Shown: positions 1 through 36,305, numbered from the stretch's first letter. The stretch is DNA of 36,305 nucleotides from a virus (IMGVR_UViG_3300025803_000037:1-36305); one strand, 5' to 3'. Numbers and translations are program-made. Notes: generated by a model from the letters alone, not told the origin.

Positions 1-32
1 CCTGATGTAGTCTCTTGAAAACCTAAAGCCAT
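1..32 (-). CDS. 5' fragment of SSB-like gene (cut by window edge)
   Basis: Reads MALGFQETTS, matching the N-terminus MALGFTETSS of 34279..34905. Confidence 0.8.
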   Translation of the reverse strand, partial: MALGFQETTS

Positions 33-54
33 TTTTAACTCCTAAACTTTAGAA

Positions 55-471
55 CTACCGCACGACCAGTGCGGCTTGGATCGGGAAATAGGCGCAAATG
101 TCTGCGTCTTGTGGGTCGCCCCTGTCAGACCTTCCGCCCTTCCCAATTTCGTAATCACCCGCAAAATCAAACCGGGCGATGTTATCCTTATAAACATTTA
201 ACAAATACGCTGGCAAGCCGGTGTGTTGCGTCAGCAGCCGCGCTTGTATAACTTTCGACAGGCTAATCATCGCTGTGTCGTACTGTAACAGGCGCACGTT
301 ACGATGCTTCACCTCAATAAATGCCTTTGCCTTGTTATCCTTAAACACCACAAAGTCGAGGCGATACTGTATCGGCAGCTTGTAAAAATCATAGCCGTGA
401 GCCGCAAAAGCATCGGCTACTGCCTGCTCTTTGCGTCTGTCGGCCTCGGTTTCGTACATTGGCCTAGCCAT
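55..471 (-). CDS. PD-(D/E)XK-family nuclease, copy 1
   Basis: LDFVVF...FIEVKHR motif. Start overlaps the MTase stop. About 90% identical to 34915..35343 (13 differences in 138 aa by hand). Confidence 0.7.
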   Translation of the reverse strand: MARPMYETEADRRKEQAVADAFAAHGYDFYKLPIQYRLDFVVFKDNKAKAFIEVKHRNVRLLQYDTAMISLSKVIQARLLTQHTGLPAYLLNVYKDNIARFDFAGDYEIGKGGRSDRGDPQDADICAYFPIQAALVVR

Positions 472-1513
472 TGTGCGCCTCCTTAATAGCCCACAATATA
501 CGCGCCGCCACTTGTGGCACGATGCTATTACCTAATTGTCTAAGGCGGTGTACCCGACCGGATACCCCATTAGCCACTCGACCCACTCCGGGTTCAGGGA
601 GCCAGAACTTACTTTTTCCCCACGGTAAACCCTCATCGCCAATTTGCTGTCGTCCCTTTTGCCTCGATCCTTTTGGTTTGGACTGTCTTTGAAGTCCCTC
701 GCTGTCGGCGTTGGATACATCTGCGCTTGATCCTTCAGTCGCGTCTGTTTCTTCTCGCCCTTGTGATCTATCCAATACAGACCTGTCCACGTCCAATCGT
801 CTCGCTTTGGCGGTTCCCCGCTGCTCGCGCTCGGCGTTGCCCACAGCACTGGCTCTATCACCTGATCCCGCAGATTGCTCGATCTTTTGCGTCTGCCTGT
901 CAAGCTCTCTTTGTATGCGCCCGATATCCCTGACGGCAGATGATCCATCGTGTTTGGCGTTGCCCACAATGGCTCGTTCCAGCCGCTGTTCATTGATGGA
1001 GCCATCTGGTTCGCCTTCGCTGTCGGCGTGTGCAATAATCCAGCATCTGTCTCTGCGGTGGTGGGCATCTGCGGCGACAGCCGGTATAACAAAGCATCTT
1101 GCTTGGTAACCTTGATTTTCCAAGTCAGATAGCACCGTGTCGAGGCCCATAGAGATGTGTCCAGCAACATTTTCTCCAATAACCCAAGTCGGCCTGACAG
1201 CTTGGATAATTCTAAGCATTTCCGGCCAGAGGTGTCGGTCATCTTTATCGCCTCGTCTGACCCCGGCAAGCGAGAAGGGCTGGCAAGGATATCCGCCACA
1301 AATAATGTCAACTGATCCTCTGAACCGTTCTGCGTCATTAGCTAACTCCCTAACGTCATCAATTATTTCTGTGTCAGGCCAATGCTTACGCAAGACCTTC
1401 TGCGCGTGTTTATCATACTCACAAAACGCGACTGTCTCATAGCCACCGACCAGCTTTTCGCCAGCGTAACTAAAGCCGCCAATGCCGCTGAATAGATCGA
1501 GCATTTTAAGCAT
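464..1513 (-). CDS. C5-cytosine DNA methyltransferase, catalytic (alpha) polypeptide, copy 1
   Basis: Motif I DLFSGIGG, motif IV GGYPCQPFS, motif VI ENV, motif VIII HRRDRCW, motif X LGNSIVPQVA. No motif IX in this frame. Confidence 0.93.
   Translation of the reverse strand: MLKMLDLFSGIGGFSYAGEKLVGGYETVAFCEYDKHAQKVLRKHWPDTEIIDDVRELANDAERFRGSVDIICGGYPCQPFSLAGVRRGDKDDRHLWPEMLRIIQAVRPTWVIGENVAGHISMGLDTVLSDLENQGYQARCFVIPAVAADAHHRRDRCWIIAHADSEGEPDGSINEQRLERAIVGNAKHDGSSAVRDIGRIQRELDRQTQKIEQSAGSGDRASAVGNAEREQRGTAKARRLDVDRSVLDRSQGREETDATEGSSADVSNADSEGLQRQSKPKGSRQKGRQQIGDEGLPWGKSKFWLPEPGVGRVANGVSGRVHRLRQLGNSIVPQVAARILWAIKEAHNG
532..1338 (-). CDS. Nested alternative-frame MTase beta polypeptide (motif IX plus four TRD-like modules), copy 1
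   Basis: 268-aa ORF wholly inside the MTase gene. AGGGAG RBS 7 nt upstream of ATG. C-terminus LNPEWVEWLMGYPVGYT is motif IX-like. Repeats LLHTP/LWATP/LWATP/MYPTP. Also open in the second copy. Confidence 0.85.
   Translation of the reverse strand: MTQNGSEDQLTLFVADILASPSRLPGSDEAIKMTDTSGRKCLELSKLSGRLGLLEKMLLDTSLWASTRCYLTWKIKVTKQDALLYRLSPQMPTTAETDAGLLHTPTAKANQMAPSMNSGWNEPLWATPNTMDHLPSGISGAYKESLTGRRKRSSNLRDQVIEPVLWATPSASSGEPPKRDDWTWTGLYWIDHKGEKKQTRLKDQAQMYPTPTARDFKDSPNQKDRGKRDDSKLAMRVYRGEKVSSGSLNPEWVEWLMGYPVGYTALDN
1346..1351 (-). promoter_or_regulatory. Internal Shine-Dalgarno site for the nested beta ORF
   Basis: Minus strand reads AGGGAG-ttagcta-ATG. Conserved in copy 2 as AGGGAG-ttagcaa-ATG. 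Confidence 0.7.
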
Positions 1514-3169: not shown

Positions 3170-3285
3170 TGATTAAAGATACAATCGGGATGCTGTTTGT
3201 TACAGCATTTGTAATCACGTTTTTTACTAACGCCATCACCACCGAATACAACGTGTGGGCTTTGATGGTAAAATTTGGGAGCTAA
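3169..3285 (+). CDS. Small membrane protein (38 aa; not in ORF track)
   Basis: MIKDTIGMLFVTAFVITFFTNAITTEYNVWALMVKFGS. TAATG overlap with the recombinase stop, GGGAG upstream, fills the gap exactly. Confidence 0.6.
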   Translation: MIKDTIGMLFVTAFVITFFTNAITTEYNVWALMVKFGS

Positions 3286-3287
3286 AA

Positions 3288-4241
3288 ATGGTTGGAAAAC
3301 TTACACCGGATAATCAGTTGAGCGTCAGCCGGGTCGCTACATTGTTGAACGCATCACCGTGGCAAACGCAGAATGAATTGCTTGAGGAAATGATTAGCAT
3401 TGATGAGGGCAACCCGCCAACGCGCATACCTCAGAACGAACCAATGGAACTGGGCGATTTCTTTGAGCCAATGATATTGCGAAAGGCTGCCGAGCGTCTG
3501 GCCTTAACCAATGTCGAGACTGACATTACCGTGCCATACCAGCACGATCACCTGCCACTGGCAGCCAGTCTTGATGGCACTGGCGTTGGTCACGGCTCTG
3601 TCAGGGCCAACTGGGATAAGGGTATCTATGTGCCGCAGGGTGGCTGGATAGACACCACTGGCGTTGGCTTGATTGAAGCCAAGCTAACGTCAGCACGGCC
3701 AGAAGAGATCCCGGCACCGCATCGAGGCCCGCTGCAATTGCAGGGTCAGATGATGTGTACCGGGTATAAATGGGGCTGCGTTGCTGTTCTATACCAAAGC
3801 ACAACGCTGCGCCTGTTCGTTTATCAGGCTGATGAGGTAATACAAAACCGCATTCGCGAGGCGGTTATTGATTTTGAAAATCGCCGAAAAAATATTGACA
3901 AATACCCAGTCGTGTCACCGGCTGATGGGGTGGCGGCGTATGGCCGGGTTGATACTGACGCACCGCCATTGGAGCTTGAGGGTGACGATGCACTGTGGGT
4001 TGACCACCTGATGGCGGCAAAGGCTAACAAGTCAATGGCAGAGCGAGAGATCGACATTGCCACTGCTGCCTTGATGGACACGATGGGCAGTCACGACACG
4101 GCCTTTGCCTCGGTTGGCAATCGCCGGGTGCAAGTCAAATGGCCTACTCGCAAGATGCGGGCGCAGCCTGAGAAAGTCGTGCCTGCCAAGCCTGAGACTG
4201 TCATGCGCCAGAAAACATTAACGCTAAAGGAGATTGACTGA
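3288..4241 (+). CDS. YqaJ/lambda-exonuclease-family recombination nuclease
   Basis: S.VATLL..SPWQT..EL, ME.G..FEP, ASLDG, IEAK and QLQGQM motifs. Start placed at ATG 3288 behind GGGAG. Confidence 0.85.
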   Translation: MVGKLTPDNQLSVSRVATLLNASPWQTQNELLEEMISIDEGNPPTRIPQNEPMELGDFFEPMILRKAAERLALTNVETDITVPYQHDHLPLAASLDGTGVGHGSVRANWDKGIYVPQGGWIDTTGVGLIEAKLTSARPEEIPAPHRGPLQLQGQMMCTGYKWGCVAVLYQSTTLRLFVYQADEVIQNRIREAVIDFENRRKNIDKYPVVSPADGVAAYGRVDTDAPPLELEGDDALWVDHLMAAKANKSMAEREIDIATAALMDTMGSHDTAFASVGNRRVQVKWPTRKMRAQPEKVVPAKPETVMRQKTLTLKEID

Positions 4242-8386: not shown

Positions 8387-9427
8387 TTATAACTCCGCAC
8401 TAACTGAAGCAACCGCATCACCATTGCTTCCACCAGACTTTATAAATATCATTTGAGAACCTTTATAAAGAGTAAATCCATTTACCCCTATGCCTGTAGC
8501 TGTTGGAGATGGAACAGTGTAACTGTTAAAACTGTCGATAGATGAAGGTGCTGCTCTTTTTTCTACTTTAAACCCAACATCAAGCCATTGGTTGGCGGCA
8601 TTGCCGTTAAGTGAAACTGACATAAAAGAATAACCATCGCCACCACTTGAAACTGCGTGACCTAGCAATTCAAAATACCGCTGACACCTAGCCAACTCAT
8701 CGCCATAGCTGCGGTGTTCAAACGGCGTGGCCTGTTCGCCTACTTCTAGCTGGATGCCGGTGATGTACCAAGTTGCAGAGCCTGTGGCAATTAACTGAAC
8801 ACTGCTAGAGGCAGTATGATAATTAGCACCAGCCCAAGCATCGGCAGGACCTTGAAAGCTTGTGCCAGAACCTAAATCCAACATAAGTTTTAAGCCTGTG
8901 ACATCTGTTGTTAGCCAAGTACCTGATGTGTCTAATTGGAATGTCTTTGTGATTTTTTCCCAAGTGTTAGCTGTAGAAATATTATATTGGAAAGGGTAAC
9001 TACGGGTAGCCGCCCCGTTTTCCAAACTCGCACCGTGATTTCCAGTCAAGCTACTTTTTACCCAAAAACTAAGAGTAACTTTAACAGCATCGCTTGTGCC
9101 TAACATAAGGTGTGCTACATTCTGACCTTCAATTCTATATTGAATGACATAGTAATCTGAAGCCGCAATACTGCTGTCTGCTGTATCTACAGTAGCTTTC
9201 AAGCTGTTTTTGAAGCCTTGACCAGAAGGTGTGTCTGTTTCTTGACTAAGAGTAAAAGCACCGCCACCTGTAATGCTTGTCAAATATCTGTCAACAGACA
9301 CATAACTAGCATTAGCCGCACTCGCACTCGTACCCCGCTGTGCCACCTGCATCGCACCATTGATGATGAGGTTTCTTGCACCAGCAAACTGGGATTGTCC
9401 GGCTGGTAATATTTTAGATAAAGCCAT
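8387..9427 (-). CDS. Tail fibre protein with carbohydrate-binding-like domain
   Basis: RNLIINGAMQVAQRGT and QLEVGEQATPFEHRSYGDELARCQRYF motifs typical of phage fibre proteins. Confidence 0.75.
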   Translation of the reverse strand: MALSKILPAGQSQFAGARNLIINGAMQVAQRGTSASAANASYVSVDRYLTSITGGGAFTLSQETDTPSGQGFKNSLKATVDTADSSIAASDYYVIQYRIEGQNVAHLMLGTSDAVKVTLSFWVKSSLTGNHGASLENGAATRSYPFQYNISTANTWEKITKTFQLDTSGTWLTTDVTGLKLMLDLGSGTSFQGPADAWAGANYHTASSSVQLIATGSATWYITGIQLEVGEQATPFEHRSYGDELARCQRYFELLGHAVSSGGDGYSFMSVSLNGNAANQWLDVGFKVEKRAAPSSIDSFNSYTVPSPTATGIGVNGFTLYKGSQMIFIKSGGSNGDAVASVSAEL

Positions 9428-10554
9428 TAGCTTGCCTCCAGTGCCGTAATTCGGGCTTCTAACGCTGTGATTGTTTCTTGCTGCTCTTGGAGAGCCTTAA
9501 TTAATATCGGAACAAACACGCTGTACTTAACCGACTTTGTAGTTTCACCAGTTTCTTCACCTTCATTATTGGTGTCTGGTGATTCCTTAATCATATTTGG
9601 AAATATTTGTTCTAACTCTTGAGCGACTACGCCAATTTGTTTATCTGTTGTGCCAATCAAATTATAGTTACGAACTTGTACTTTCATTAAATCTGCAAGT
9701 TTTGGAGTTGTATCAACAATGTTTTCTTTTAGTTTTACATCTGAAAGTGCGCCATAAGAGTTGTTACTGTTTTCACAGTCTCCGTCACCCCGAACAATTA
9801 AGCTTTTAAGAGTAGAGGTTCCTAAAAAACGCGCAAGTACGTCACTTGCTGTTTTAGCAGCGTTAAGAACAGTAAAAGTAGCCCAATCAGCGTCAGTGCC
9901 GATGCCCACGTTGCCGTTGCTGCTGATACGCATTTTTTCACTAAAACCAGTTGCGTCTTTTGCTGTAGCGGTAGCAAACTTGAAGCCTGTGTTAGAATAC
10001 AAACTGGTGGGGTCTGATGCTGTCGCACCAGTAAACATAACTGCAAAATTAGACCCACCATCCAATGCTAGACTAGCACCTGATGAACCACCGTCTATAT
10101 TAAGGGTTTTCTGTAACCCGCTTGGGCTTACAGTGCCAATGCCCACGTTGCCGCTGCTGCTGTCAACTTTGAGAGTGCTAGTGTCAACAGTAAGGTCGCC
10201 AGCAATGTCGATGTTGGTATCTAGCTTTGCGCTAGTAACAGAACCATCAATAATCTTGGCTGTGCTTACAGACGCATCCGGCGTTACTGTCGTTTGCAAA
10301 GCCAGTGAGTTGTAGACCACATAGATGTCGTCTGTCGCTACAACAGAGCCAGTAAGCGTTACTGTTACGCCATCAGCACCAATAGAATATGCTGTTGTAG
10401 GCTCTTGCCTCACGTTATTGATAAAAAGTGAAATGCCTTCTGCGCTTGCGACAGCGTGTGTCAGCGTCAGGCTAGTGCCAGTAATATTAGTAAAGTCTTG
10501 TTTGGCAGGTACTTGGCTAAAGCCTTGCGTCTGTTGATTGCCTATGTAAGCCAT
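9427..10554 (-). CDS. Tail fibre with C-terminal intramolecular chaperone (peptidase S74-like)
   Basis: GNVGIGT repeats, SDVKLKENI autocleavage motif, IGVVAQELE..FP and terminal coiled coil. Confidence 0.85.
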   Translation of the reverse strand: MAYIGNQQTQGFSQVPAKQDFTNITGTSLTLTHAVASAEGISLFINNVRQEPTTAYSIGADGVTVTLTGSVVATDDIYVVYNSLALQTTVTPDASVSTAKIIDGSVTSAKLDTNIDIAGDLTVDTSTLKVDSSSGNVGIGTVSPSGLQKTLNIDGGSSGASLALDGGSNFAVMFTGATASDPTSLYSNTGFKFATATAKDATGFSEKMRISSNGNVGIGTDADWATFTVLNAAKTASDVLARFLGTSTLKSLIVRGDGDCENSNNSYGALSDVKLKENIVDTTPKLADLMKVQVRNYNLIGTTDKQIGVVAQELEQIFPNMIKESPDTNNEGEETGETTKSVKYSVFVPILIKALQEQQETITALEARITALEAS

Positions 10555-32397: not shown

Positions 32398-34197
32398 TTA
32401 CGCTAACCCCTTGTTAATCCACACTTTGCCCTCATGCACTGTCACCACACCCTTGTCCTGCAAGCCCTGCCGCGCATCCTTTCGCTGTCCGGGCGTTAAA
32501 TCGGGTGATTTGACCTTGTGCGCCTCATGCCATTGGCTCACTGACAAGGCATCTGTCGTTAGTTTTATCAGCGTATTTTGCAGCGATTGGAATGCGTGTT
32601 GCTGCCTCGCCGACAGGTTTTGTTTCTTTGTTGCACCCTGCGCCTCAATGGGTTTCATCACGATGCTGGTGTCGTCAACCAATGCCACTGGCGTCATCTC
32701 AAACGTGATCTTGTCGATTGGCTCTGCATCCTTTTGCTTATCCATTGACAACGCCACGATGCTTTCGGCCTTGCCCACCGCCAGCACAGTATCAGCGGCA
32801 CCAGCCAGTGCCGAGCTACCGCGCATAGAGTTGATGCCCCGGCTCGCATCCTTGCCAGCGTGATGTATTGCCAACAAGCCGCAGCCGGTGTGATGCTTTA
32901 CCGCGTCACAGCCCCTGATGAATGACGACATATCTGTGGCGCTGTTCTCTTCGCCGGTCATGCTGCGAGCCACAGTGTCAATCACTAGGCAGCTAAACTG
33001 CTCATCAAGGCTGTCAATAGTACGCAGCAGCTTGTCGATGCTTTCCTCGTCCATCATATCAACGGCCATAGGCAGGACGCGCAGCAAGCCGGTATCCTCA
33101 ACCTGATTGTGCAGCTTCCACGCCTTGACGCGCTTTCCCAGCCCGCCAACGCCCTCACCGGCAATGTACAGCACAACGCCCTGCCTAGTCTGCCTGCCGT
33201 GCCACGCCAAGCCGTGTGACATACACAATGCCATATCAATAGCTATGAATGACTTGCCAGTGCCGGGGGCGCCATACATGACGCTGAAACCGTGCTTAGT
33301 TAGTACATCGTCAATCATCCACTCAACTGGCGGCATCGTCATTAGGTAATGCTCATCATACAGCGGGTAAATGTCAGGCTTGACATCTGGCGCTGTCTCA
33401 ACCACTGGCGCTTGACGTGCTAGTTCAAGCAATACCTTCTTGCCGTTGCCTGCTGCCAGCCAATCAGCCACGTCACCCTTGTGCGGCAGGTTTGGCAAAT
33501 CCAGACGCTTGATCTTGTCCACCGTGCCGTGCAGCGCCGCTATCACTGTGTCTGCGTGTGCTTGCCCGGCCTCATCGTTGTCGGGCAGCACTACGACATT
33601 GCGATCAGCGAAATACTGCGCTAGCTCCGGCTTCCAGTTCTTTGAGCCGCCACTGTTTGTCGTGGCGATCAGGCCAAGCTCGATCAGTGCATCGGCGCAT
33701 TTCTCGCCCTCAACAATAAACACTGGCGCTTGTGGATTAGTCACGATGGCTGGCAGGTTATATGGCAGCGGGTCAATGTCTTTGATGCTGTTGATCCAGC
33801 CACCGCTGTTATCCGGGCGTCTTTGTCTGAATGTCTTGGGGTTATCGAACCGCAATACCTGATAGGCCAACACGCCATCGCTGTCATAATAATCATAAGC
33901 GCGAGACATCTTCGGCGTCACTGGCAGGGCTCTTTGTTGCTGCTTGCTGATGCCAAACTTTCGCTCTAGCACGTCAGGTATGTTGCCGTTGATGCTGGCT
34001 GGCTCGTTTGCCTTCACCATATCAATTACACCGCCGGATTCCCCAGTCTCAAAATTACTCCAAACGCCTTTGCGCGTACAAACCGACAGGCTGCCGTGTG
34101 TACCCCAACGCAATTCTGTGCCTTTTGACAGGCGCGGGTTTGGCTCACCCCAGTAATGGCGGGCAACCTGTTCTATATATGCTGCTATGTTTGTCAT
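32398..34197 (-). CDS. Primase-helicase (TOPRIM plus RepA/AAA_25-type helicase)
   Basis: IVEGEKCAD and PDNDEAG TOPRIM motifs, Walker A GAPGTGKS, LVIDT, IHHAGK and RGSSAL. Confidence 0.92.
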   Translation of the reverse strand: MTNIAAYIEQVARHYWGEPNPRLSKGTELRWGTHGSLSVCTRKGVWSNFETGESGGVIDMVKANEPASINGNIPDVLERKFGISKQQQRALPVTPKMSRAYDYYDSDGVLAYQVLRFDNPKTFRQRRPDNSGGWINSIKDIDPLPYNLPAIVTNPQAPVFIVEGEKCADALIELGLIATTNSGGSKNWKPELAQYFADRNVVVLPDNDEAGQAHADTVIAALHGTVDKIKRLDLPNLPHKGDVADWLAAGNGKKVLLELARQAPVVETAPDVKPDIYPLYDEHYLMTMPPVEWMIDDVLTKHGFSVMYGAPGTGKSFIAIDMALCMSHGLAWHGRQTRQGVVLYIAGEGVGGLGKRVKAWKLHNQVEDTGLLRVLPMAVDMMDEESIDKLLRTIDSLDEQFSCLVIDTVARSMTGEENSATDMSSFIRGCDAVKHHTGCGLLAIHHAGKDASRGINSMRGSSALAGAADTVLAVGKAESIVALSMDKQKDAEPIDKITFEMTPVALVDDTSIVMKPIEAQGATKKQNLSARQQHAFQSLQNTLIKLTTDALSVSQWHEAHKVKSPDLTPGQRKDARQGLQDKGVVTVHEGKVWINKGLA

Positions 34198-34228
34198 CTC
34201 ATTACCCCAATCCCTTGCCCCTTAAAGC

Positions 34229-34269
34229 GTGACCGGCGGCAGCCAAGGGAGGAAACCGCCGCCGATCAC
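34229..34269 (-). promoter_or_regulatory. Long GC hairpin with anti-SD-like loop between SSB-like and primase genes
   Basis: Minus strand GTGATCGGCGGCGGTT-TCCTCCCTT-GGCTGCCGCCGGTCAC. Confidence 0.6.
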
Positions 34270-34278
34270 TAACCGCCG

Positions 34279-34905
34279 CTAGAACAAATCAGCGCCCTCG
34301 ACTACCGAAGGGGTTGCAGCAACCGGGGCTGCTACGGCGGGTTCTGGGGCAGGTTCTGCCTTATCTAAACCAGCAGGGCGATCAACCCAGCCAGTTATTG
34401 CCCACTTAGGCGAGCGAAAGGTTTGTGTGCCTTGTGCCTTAGTTTCGATCTGGATGCGATCAGAGCCGGTGATCTCAACCACTGGCACCTTGCCGGGGTT
34501 GTCAGCTTTGCCAGCCAGATATGCATCGTGCAAATCATTCATCTGATTACGCACGATCTTGCTGCTGCTGCTCATCTCGCGCAGGCTGATCTCTTTGTTG
34601 TACATCCGAATGCGGAAGCCTTCCTTATGCTCATCACTAGGCTTGACCGGCATTGGCTCGCCAACCTTAACAAAACGAAAGTCAGGGCCAGTCGTGGTAA
34701 AGGCAATAAACCCAACCTCAATTGCGTCCATATCCATTACCACCTTAAAAGGCAATTCCATTTCGGTTTCGCTCTTTTCCCAAGTTCCCTCGCTAGTCTG
34801 GTGCCGGTCTTGGCGCACGAATGAGCCATCCTTTGCACTGAATTTCATAATAGGCAGGAAATCCCCGCCGCCGGAACTGCTAGTCTCTGTAAAACCTAAA
34901 GCCAT
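34279..34905 (-). CDS. Putative ssDNA-binding/annealing protein
   Basis: Beta-rich core, Pro/Ala linker and acidic-Phe tail (EGADLF), directly upstream of the primase-helicase. Confidence 0.55.
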   Translation of the reverse strand: MALGFTETSSSGGGDFLPIMKFSAKDGSFVRQDRHQTSEGTWEKSETEMELPFKVVMDMDAIEVGFIAFTTTGPDFRFVKVGEPMPVKPSDEHKEGFRIRMYNKEISLREMSSSSKIVRNQMNDLHDAYLAGKADNPGKVPVVEITGSDRIQIETKAQGTQTFRSPKWAITGWVDRPAGLDKAEPAPEPAVAAPVAATPSVVEGADLF

Positions 34906-34914
34906 TTTAAACTC

Positions 34915-35343
34915 CTAAACTTTAGAACTACGCAAAACGGTTGCGCCACCGATTGGAAAATAGGCACAGATATCTGCGTCTTGGGCATCGCCCCGGTCAG
35001 ATCTACCACCCTTCCCCAATTTGTAATCGCCAGCGAAATCAAAGCGGGCGATGTTATCTATATATACGTTCAGCAAATACGCTGGCAAGCCAGTGTGCTG
35101 CGTCAGCAGCCGGGCTTGTATTACTTTCGACAGGCTCACCATCGCTGTGTCGTACTGCAACAGCCGCACGTTGCGATGCTTTACCTCAATAAATGCCTTG
35201 GCCTTGTTGTCCTTAAACACCACAAAGTCGAGGCGATACTGCACCGGCAGTTTGTAGAAATCATAGCCGTGTTCAGCAAAAGCATTGGCTAGTGCCTGCT
35301 CTTTGCGTCTGTCGGCCTCGGTTTCGTACATCGGCCTAGCCAT
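34915..35343 (-). CDS. PD-(D/E)XK-family nuclease, copy 2
   Basis: Homolog of 55..471, 4 aa longer because of a 1-nt indel at the stop. Confidence 0.7.
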   Translation of the reverse strand: MARPMYETEADRRKEQALANAFAEHGYDFYKLPVQYRLDFVVFKDNKAKAFIEVKHRNVRLLQYDTAMVSLSKVIQARLLTQHTGLPAYLLNVYIDNIARFDFAGDYKLGKGGRSDRGDAQDADICAYFPIGGATVLRSSKV

Positions 35344-36305
35344 TGTGCGCCTCTTTGATAGCCCACAATATCCGCGCCGCCACCTGAGGCACGATGCTAT
35401 TTCCTAATTGTTTAAGTCTGTGTACCCGACCGGATACCCCATTAGCCACTCTACAAATTGCGGGTTCAGGCTCCCAGAAACTCTTTTGCCATCTGGCTTC
35501 TCCACTGCGTAATCCAGCCGATCCCTCATTGTCTCGTTTCTGCCCGACCCCTTGAAGTCGTTGGCTGTCGGCGTTGGGTACATTTTTATCTGATCTGATA
35601 GGTTCGCCCCGAATACCAGATTTGGGTTTGTCTTGCTGATCCTTTGACCCTTCTCGTTCAGTGTCCTGCCGGACGCTACGTCTGACGTTCTCGGCGTCGC
35701 CCACAGTTTTGGCTCTTGCGCCTCTTGCCACTTCCTGACCGTCTCTGGGTCTACCTGTTCCCTGAGGTTGCTCGGCAACGCCCTGCCCTTCCGATGACCT
35801 TCCGCCATCTTCTTGAGGCTCTCCTCTGACCGCTGCGGCAGATGATCCATTGAGTTCGGAGTAGCCCACAATCCAGCATCTGTCGCGTCTATGTCTGGCG
35901 TCTGCGGCGACAGCCGGTATAACAAAGCACCTTGCTTGGTATCCTTCGGCTTCCAAGTCAGATAGCACCTCGTCGAGGCCCATAGAGATGTGTCCAGCAA
36001 CATTTTCTCCAATAACCCAAGTCGGCCTGACAGCTTGGATAATTCTAAGCATTTCCGGCCAGAGGTGTCGGTCATCTTTATCGCCTCTGCGCTTCCCGGC
36101 AGACGAGAAGGGCTGGCAGGGGTATCCCCCGACAACAATGTCAACCAATCCTCTAAATCTATCTGCGTCATTTGCTAACTCCCTAACGTCATCAATTATC
36201 TCTGTGTCAGGCCAATGCTTACGCAAGACCTTCTGCGCGTGTTTATCATACTCGCAAAACGCGACTGTCTCGTAGCCACCCACCAGCTTTTCGCCAGCAT
36301 AACTA
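35336..36305 (-). CDS. C5-cytosine DNA methyltransferase alpha polypeptide, copy 2 (5'-truncated by window edge)
   Basis: GGYPCQPFS, ENV, HRRDRCW and LGNSIVPQVA motifs. The frame runs off the window end. Confidence 0.92.
   Translation of the reverse strand, partial: SYAGEKLVGGYETVAFCEYDKHAQKVLRKHWPDTEIIDDVRELANDADRFRGLVDIVVGGYPCQPFSSAGKRRGDKDDRHLWPEMLRIIQAVRPTWVIGENVAGHISMGLDEVLSDLEAEGYQARCFVIPAVAADARHRRDRCWIVGYSELNGSSAAAVRGEPQEDGGRSSEGQGVAEQPQGTGRPRDGQEVARGARAKTVGDAENVRRSVRQDTEREGSKDQQDKPKSGIRGEPIRSDKNVPNADSQRLQGVGQKRDNEGSAGLRSGEARWQKSFWEPEPAICRVANGVSGRVHRLKQLGNSIVPQVAARILWAIKEAHNG
35404..36171 (-). CDS. Nested alternative-frame MTase beta polypeptide (motif IX plus three TRD-like modules), copy 2
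   Basis: AGGGAG RBS, LWATP/LWATP/MYPTP repeats, LNPQFVEWLMGYPVGYT. Confidence 0.85.
   Translation of the reverse strand: MTQIDLEDWLTLLSGDTPASPSRLPGSAEAIKMTDTSGRKCLELSKLSGRLGLLEKMLLDTSLWASTRCYLTWKPKDTKQGALLYRLSPQTPDIDATDAGLWATPNSMDHLPQRSEESLKKMAEGHRKGRALPSNLREQVDPETVRKWQEAQEPKLWATPRTSDVASGRTLNEKGQRISKTNPNLVFGANLSDQIKMYPTPTANDFKGSGRNETMRDRLDYAVEKPDGKRVSGSLNPQFVEWLMGYPVGYTDLNN

Follow-up and report, generated by a model that had tools for sequence, protein, structure and literature searches.

Cytosine-5 (C5) DNA methyltransferases make their specific DNA contacts from the small domain, formed by motif IX together with the variable region (PMC3404938). The multispecific C5 enzymes of Bacillus phages array several target recognition domains (TRDs) in tandem (PMC12707154; PMC8936443). 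By their descriptions (PMC8936443, PMC12707154, PMC2413257), these are orphan phage enzymes formed by single chains, with tandem differing units in the variable region between motifs VIII and IX, TL-consensus TRDs, multiple measured targets and a proposed anti-restriction role. In M.phiBssHII, the TRDs are reported to be situated at separated locations (cited in PMC8936443). Two-chain enzymes have been described as well. The beta chain of M.EcoHK31I (YGGCCR) is encoded wholly in another frame inside the alpha gene; alpha carries motifs I-VIII and X together with a predicted TRD, and beta holds motif IX only (PMC2836561, PMC3404938). M.AquI consists of one chain bearing motifs I-VIII plus a portion of the variable region, and a second with the distal variable region and motifs IX-X (PMC3404938). 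Finally, recognition units of the type I and IIG specificity genes are gained, lost and exchanged by recombination at short flanking repeats, a process named domain movement (DoMo), which concerns specificity subunits of host restriction-modification systems with two TRDs reading one bipartite site (PMC3077401).

The window analysed here, i.e. the whole stretch of 36,305 nt of virus DNA (IMGVR_UViG_3300025803_000037:1-36305), comes from an aquatic phage. A single gene region in it, read in two frames, would give rise to a two-chain phage DNA cytosine-5 methyltransferase (a heterodimer), in which alpha (motifs I-VIII and X) would be responsible for SAM binding and catalysis, with beta contributing motif IX. 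Each module of 30-55 residues on beta would act as a small target recognition domain with one target apiece, and several DNA sequences would be shielded from host restriction enzymes by one enzyme. The probability of this reading, under which the C5 methylase has two chains, serves against restriction and is made multispecific by small recognition domains that can be exchanged, is put at about 65%. Both the existence of the array and the constraint on it from two frames are established; its likely function is multispecificity.

In gene layout the enzyme probably works like M.EcoHK31I, in the logic of its array like the Bacillus phage enzymes, and it belongs to neither type, because the conserved variable part is located on beta and neither the TL consensus nor the single chain is found. 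The distribution of motifs between the chains is the same as in M.EcoHK31I, compared by description; in contrast to that enzyme, the alpha variable region drifts, conserved variable modules (1-6) are placed on beta, and the gene is an orphan phage gene. Among the Bacillus phage enzymes, SPbeta MtbP was examined and SPR, phi3T, rho11 and H2 were compared by description; unlike in these, the modules lie in a second frame, fall into hundreds of families and have no detectable sequence similarity to the MtbP TRDs. With M.AquI the locus shares a second chain with variable-region sequence and motif IX, but in the window alpha retains motif X and the whole of beta is nested. M.AquI-like variants, whose beta carries the modules as well as motifs IX and X, have been observed (P0175, P0261-P0265, L231, L427, L434, L438), and their alpha mostly stops early. 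The differences from DoMo comprise (i) units of about 40 residues; (ii) a phage C5 enzyme; (iii) the two-frame constraint; (iv) an order that is mostly kept. In the literature covered, mainly open text, no account was met of a nested methylase chain that carries an array of modules. A report on a P. larvae phage lists two cytosine methyltransferase genes, in passages without comment on nesting (PMC6070908).

Organization of the locus at the contig ends

The methylase gene is present at both ends of the window, and the features identified are listed below. The motif names and numbering are those in general use for the C5 methyltransferase family.

8..1472, no strand: contig-end overlap of about 1.47 kb, left copy (strain 1); the partner is 34881-36305 (strain 2)
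464..1513, minus strand: alpha ORF of copy 1, 349 aa; has motifs I-VIII and X of C5 methyltransferases and a low-complexity insert across the array
532..1338, minus strand: beta ORF of copy 1, 268 aa; open frame nested in alpha in the +1 frame; phrog_1008, E 2e-32
1346..1351, minus strand: AGGGAG, a Shine-Dalgarno-like sequence 7 nt 5' of the beta ATG; copy 2 has one too
970..1038, minus strand: module 1 of copy 1, 23 aa, LLHTP; the head overlaps the end of alpha motif VIII
847..969, minus strand: module 2 of copy 1, 41 aa, LWATPNTMDH...SNLRDQV; wider family of 73 members, single-chain enzymes among them
721..846, minus strand: module 3 of copy 1, 42 aa, LWATPSAS...RLKDQAQ; family of 11, internal in every case
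598..720, minus strand: module 4 of copy 1, 41 aa, MYPTPTARDFK...KLAMRV, last before motif IX; family of 7, all terminal
547..597, minus strand: motif-IX-like element of the beta frame, LNPEWVEWLMGYP; hardly varies among 142 relatives
515..535, minus strand: motif X core LGNSIVP in the alpha frame; L327 and G328 invariant in 66 alphas
35336..36305, minus strand: alpha ORF of copy 2, from the other strain; truncated at its 5' end, where the contig ends
35404..36171, minus strand: beta ORF of copy 2, 255 aa; motif IX at 35469
35707..35871, minus strand: module 1 of copy 2, 55 aa, LWATPNSMDH...SNLREQV
35584..35706, minus strand: module 2 of copy 2, 41 aa, LWATPRTSD...NLSDQIK
35470..35583, minus strand: module 3 of copy 2, 38 aa, MYPTPTANDFK...RLDYAV, terminal

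Alpha of copy 1 matches PF00145 (E 2e-40), TIGR00675 above the cut-off, and M.HhaI (E 1e-14 over residues 2-162). Its motifs I (FxGxG), IV (PC), VI (ENV), VIII (RxR) and X are all intact and invariant in 66 alphas. Pfam and NCBIfam searches with beta returned no match. Across both beta ORFs, the alpha frame contains no stops and the third frame 17 and 18. In single-chain relatives the motif-IX-like element, which is confidently modelled there, immediately precedes motif X.

The modules have characteristic features: (i) a head, [LM]W[PA]TP; (ii) often an aspartate at position 9; (iii) a variable Gly/Arg/Lys-rich stretch; (iv) a tail, xLxxx[VIA]; (v) a median length of 40 aa. The tail is not due to chance: of 175 non-redundant modules 144 have it, and shuffled ones give 35 ± 5. 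Through the conserved W-x-T-P head, modules would dock singly at the DNA-binding cleft, and the variable Gly/Arg/Lys-rich loop of the docked module would read the bases. Module 1 of copy 1 belongs to a short family (110 members, terminal in none) and is atypical, without the tail; it is maybe structural and not a reader.

The original prediction had placed four modules in copy 1, with heads at 1038, 969, 846 and 720, and three in copy 2, at 35871, 35706 and 35583, and these coordinates proved exact. It had further described one module as shared but diverged, one as absent from copy 2 and the others as having unrelated cores. Residue identities were counted past the 5-residue head. The shared pair has 17/36 identities; the short first module of copy 1 has no counterpart in copy 2; the third module of copy 1 and the second of copy 2 have 3/36, and all module pairs within one array have 3-9. 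The last modules of the two copies share 14/33.

Both alleles are real and come from two strains joined at the contig ends by assembly, not from one phage. Outside the array, the contig-end copies are 87.2% and 89.9% identical by blastn. Copy 2 has a 100% identical DNA counterpart in L032, over window positions 33407-36087, and the array of copy 1 was recovered in its greater part (568-946 or 569-1069) on single contigs with zero differences in 4/4 runs from four studies. The copies are regarded as alleles of two strains because each of five near-complete relatives (5/5) has one methylase gene; a true gene duplication within one phage is rejected on this and on the L032 match. Once the contig-end overlap is removed, the genome has about 34.8 kb. 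Its terminase is 62.6% identical to that of the related Methylophilales phage MEP301 (34,774 bp), in which the annotated structural genes form a comparable series.

Selection in two reading frames

The viral loci sampled numbered 140 (138 from IMG/VR and both window copies), and 95 of them were parsed by strict motif patterns. In all 95, beta is in the +1 frame and alpha is open to motif IX; motif X is on alpha in 94. Among 80 loci examined in bacterial genomes of many phyla, alpha is open in 67 of the 68 parsed. A beta profile search matched 42,403 clusters at 50% identity.

Codon changes have been counted along minimum spanning trees inside module clusters. The module cores show 671 synonymous and 211 non-synonymous changes in the beta frame, and 32 and 851, respectively, in the alpha frame. 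The alpha-only region shows the reverse, with 376 synonymous and 51 non-synonymous changes in alpha. Motifs IV-VIII give a mixed picture (alpha 325 / 220, beta 175 / 401), and the beta N-terminus is therefore only weakly constrained. A TRD on alpha, as predicted for M.EcoHK31I, has no counterpart here, given the alpha counts over the array, the alpha length of 40-168 aa there and the lack of a TL core in alpha over 79 arrays; the locus raises the question whether the TRD of M.EcoHK31I has been assigned to the right chain.

The overlapping alpha frame had been expected to be kept open, and this was confirmed with one representative of each of 59 module types: alpha contains 0 stops against 156 ± 10 expected from 1000 synonymous recodings, and the third frame of the same representatives contains 104. 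A natural control is given by loci with motif X moved to beta, where alpha stops before motif IX in 4 of 5, compared with 1 of 104 loci (58 + 1 + 45) with motif X kept on alpha; 25 and 43 loci were unparsed. The module cores are conserved for the beta sequence, whereas alpha, 40-168 aa long over the array, drifts there yet stays open. Since alpha is without stops over the array and gains them when motif X leaves, it appears to be a filler, which would pass through the array as a passive linker solely to deliver motif X. The locus represents a clean natural example of asymmetric dual coding, with one frame selected for sequence and the other only for staying open, and derived relatives show release of the open-frame constraint.

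Module exchange among relatives

Array composition was analysed in a viral set of 79 unique arrays (231 modules in 59 clusters, 1-5 modules per array) and in a wider set of 388 arrays (1121 modules, 316 families). Close relatives were defined as the 28 arrays with upstream DNA at least 84% identical to that of copy 1. These 28 represent 25 array layouts built from 23 module types, so that module content is far from invariant, in line with the original prediction. Recurring modules form 105 pairs, and 47 of these display all four presence/absence combinations. Different arrays also sit on backbones that are at least 97% identical (22 such pairs). Assembly chimeras may account for some layouts. 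The arrays of cultured Lacticaseibacillus phages also differ, with two modules in R23.9 and R9.1 and one in Lc-Nu; in all three phages beta is without annotation.

L457:1177-1782: unannotated beta ORF, phage R23.9
L458:1159-1764: unannotated beta ORF, phage R9.1
L459:1177-1725: unannotated beta ORF, phage Lc-Nu

Where a module is followed by differing ones, identity reaches into these by a median of 14.5 nt (38 junction types), and where the previous module differs, by a median of 3 nt (22 junction types). Past the head, shared 20-mers occur in 0 of 1711 family pairs, and no chimeric cores were seen. By these comparisons, it is the whole module that is exchanged. A crossover within the head of about 15 nt can only be inferred, because conservation of the head at the protein level would give similar boundaries. 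Co-infecting phages would recombine at these heads and at the conserved flanks, whereby specificities would be added, dropped or replaced. The shuffling of modules that had been proposed mostly takes the form of gain, loss and replacement, and their order is largely kept: among the 79 viral arrays it is acyclic with no pair reversed, and in the wider set 10 of 821 ordered family pairs are found in both orders.

Repeats of a family within an array are absent from the 358 multi-module arrays at 50% identity, against 11.6 ± 3.1 expected with position classes kept. The deficit shrinks with looser clustering (26 vs 39.9 at 40%, 63 vs 72.7 at 35%), and repeats could instead vanish through deletion between similar copies.

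Among the 43 families with at least five members, 20 are internal only, 8 terminal only and 15 both; the first two figures indicate that the array positions are not fully equivalent. They agree with an alternative in which only the last module, adjoining motif IX, reads DNA, and those upstream are accessory (affinity, stability, docking) or a reserve. Such an enzyme would be monospecific and would switch across the population, a reserve module becoming active once a deletion puts it in the last slot. The 30 single-module arrays among the 388, the acyclic order in the viral set and the tail-less first module fit this scheme too. However, families never seen last are under purifying selection in the beta frame (376 synonymous and 114 non-synonymous changes, a hand sum over families), so that a silent reserve is disfavoured; moreover, 15 families occur both internally and last, arrays avoid repeats, and modules are also found behind motif IX (P0160, P0209, P0419). 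The last-module scheme is thus held to be unlikely.

The methylase gene of L003, L007, L015, L016, L081 and others is 90-96% identical at the DNA level to that of the window in its 5' part, and the flanking proteins of these relatives are just 36-53% identical. The comparison suggests that the methylase gene itself may move between divergent phages. Near the methylase, on the opposite strand, are placed a serine recombinase (PF00239; 2522-3169, plus strand) and a YqaJ-like exonuclease (3255-4241, plus strand). Such a phage recombination system could be a candidate driver of short-homology module exchange.

Relation of the modules to recognition domains

The TRD consensus given in PMC2413257 has a full match in 0 of the 79 arrays, and its core PT[ILV][TASV] has one in 8; SPbeta MtbP itself fits only its short form. 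By HMM, hhalign and PSSM, the modules show no similarity to the TRDs of MtbP, the sole Bacillus phage enzyme compared, and sequence comparison of the motif-IX-like element with MtbP and with the PDB gave no significant score. Sequence searches of the PDB with beta, the last-module alignment and P0175 gave nothing significant, and the ESM Atlas contained no named cluster, hypothetical viral ones only. Beta alone was modelled poorly (pLDDT 54, pTM 0.21), with no fold match. The threonine of the last-module head lies 27-53 residues before motif IX, and the spacing given for the TL motif is 10-50 (PMC2413257). The predicted modular specificity array therefore stands as an array of beta-selected units exchanged whole, but not as one of TRDs with the published consensus or with similarity to those of SPbeta MtbP.

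Modules that are short, Gly/Arg/Lys-rich, with a net charge of about +1.7, and devoid of the canonical consensus could also be basic, non-specific DNA-binding loops tuning the activity of an enzyme with relaxed or dinucleotide-level specificity; relaxed orphan methylases are a known strategy of mobile elements (PMC12707154). Against this stand the hundreds of dissimilar families, each conserved (316 in 388 arrays), the occurrence of some families in both aquatic phages and single-chain enzymes, with identities of about 57-59%, and the avoidance of family repeats within arrays. The genomes, furthermore, retain a strong site avoidance that would be needless under blanket methylation, and relaxed specificity is considered quite improbable.

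The window is without or nearly without CGWCG (0 against 50 for CGACG), CCWGG, GANTC, GGWCC and most 6-bp palindromes; the avoidance further covers ACGGG and CATG, and CCGG and CCSGG are over-represented. The 6-bp palindromes are avoided in all of 14 genomes (O/E 0.34-0.55), and the figures for 25 kb of MEP301 are 550 / 755. The avoided motifs vary by genome: among the 14, CGWCG has a value of 0.00 in the window alone and GCWGC in L005 alone. Compared by eye, the avoided motifs of these 14 genomes showed no link with module content, which a sample of this kind could not bring out. Site avoidance fits a strong restriction pressure and, because many sites are still avoided, a protection that would be at best partial; the targets are not revealed by it. 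GANTC is the CcrM site, and its avoidance may indicate an alphaproteobacterial host.

The strongest support for modules as recognition domains is their position in single-chain relatives, where they are placed between motifs VIII and IX, the location of TRDs. Of the 120 listed relatives of P0295, 47 are single chains in which motif VIII is followed by a linker, then by 1-4 modules and by motif IX, and all but two of the 47 visibly run on to motif X. The linker has 31-90 aa (45 measured). The two forms have 11 of the 43 larger module families in common, and the second-module family of copy 1 is also found in single chains, at about 57-59% identity.

L418:601-1659: single-chain derivative with a fossil-module linker (old alpha frame)
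L423, L424, L425, L428: further loci of this kind
P0295, P0388: proteins of this kind

In 5/5 distinct loci of this type, the linker reads as a module in the +1 frame. Over motifs IV-VIII no stop has yet closed the +1 frame, and stops have been gained within the array by the former alpha frame in 4/5. The single chains were considered as the ancestral state and rejected as such on account of the linker; being derived from the nested form, they do not represent independent ancestral evidence.

P0388, a one-module single chain, was modelled with a pLDDT of 82.8, falling below 50 only at the linker (168-191) and the module core (202-219). The model aligns with M.HhaI end to end (Foldseek E 5.5e-16; Z 26.6, 244 of 305 residues, rmsd 2.5), and its VIII-IX interval contains just the low-confidence linker and the module. 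In chains of this type, the model leaves no candidate but the module for the variable region of the small domain. The placement of the modules in the VIII-IX variable region was shown by these single-chain relatives and the alignment of P0388 with M.HhaI.

The same interval bears on the idea that the modules are decoy or inhibitor peptides against host defence proteins, borne on beta. A fast turnover, as in arms-race elements, the lack of homology to known TRDs and the tolerance of modules behind motif IX would suit such peptides; but the VIII-IX interval of one-module single chains holds nothing else, and of 221 parsed beta proteins all but one (220) have one or more modules ahead of motif IX, which makes a decoy function very improbable. 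Hardest to credit, and already largely refuted, is an artefact, with array differences produced by assembly chimeras or beta as a mere shadow of alpha: the window does join two strains at its ends and metagenomic assembly can recombine alleles at shared heads, inflating the layout count, but most of the copy 1 array recurs on single contigs in four runs of four studies, L032 matches copy 2 at 100%, the cultured phages R23.9, R9.1 and Lc-Nu carry different arrays, and substitutions are synonymous in beta and not in alpha.

Extra modules, up to about five of them, also follow motif IX or else precede the N-terminal region of beta (P0160, P0209, P0419, P0446, P0240); those behind motif IX recall the separated TRDs of M.phiBssHII. 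P0053, P0111 and P0120 have alpha motif I at their start and then pass into the beta frame, by a natural frameshift or an assembly error.

The balance also tilts slightly towards a broader reading, namely that phages of many bacterial phyla hold, hidden in the second frame of a methylase, a library of hundreds of DNA-recognition modules of about 40 residues, far smaller than known TRDs and unrelated to them in sequence. Each would add one protected sequence, and the anti-restriction shield would be rebuilt by swapping, the catalytic frame above passing through the modules as filler. Were this so, recombining specificities would be the answer to host restriction of a phage family that is very large and for the most part unannotated, and the 316 module families would be a ready set for the study of C5 sequence reading and a source of new 5mC specificities.

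The methylase has PD-(D/E)xK proteins as neighbours on both sides. Near-identical downstream nucleases (76-100%) accompany at least 7 different arrays, and shared modules also accompany nucleases about 50% alike. The methylase behaves as an orphan because near-identical nucleases accompany many different arrays; a cognate restriction enzyme of a type II pair was rejected, as the flanking nucleases do not co-vary with the array. Promoter matches upstream of the locus are at chance level, and RNA runs gave small shares only, 0.10-0.16. Elsewhere in the window, a 32-bp direct repeat (94%) is situated at 9894-9925 and 10131-10162, inside a tail-fibre-like ORF (9427-10554).
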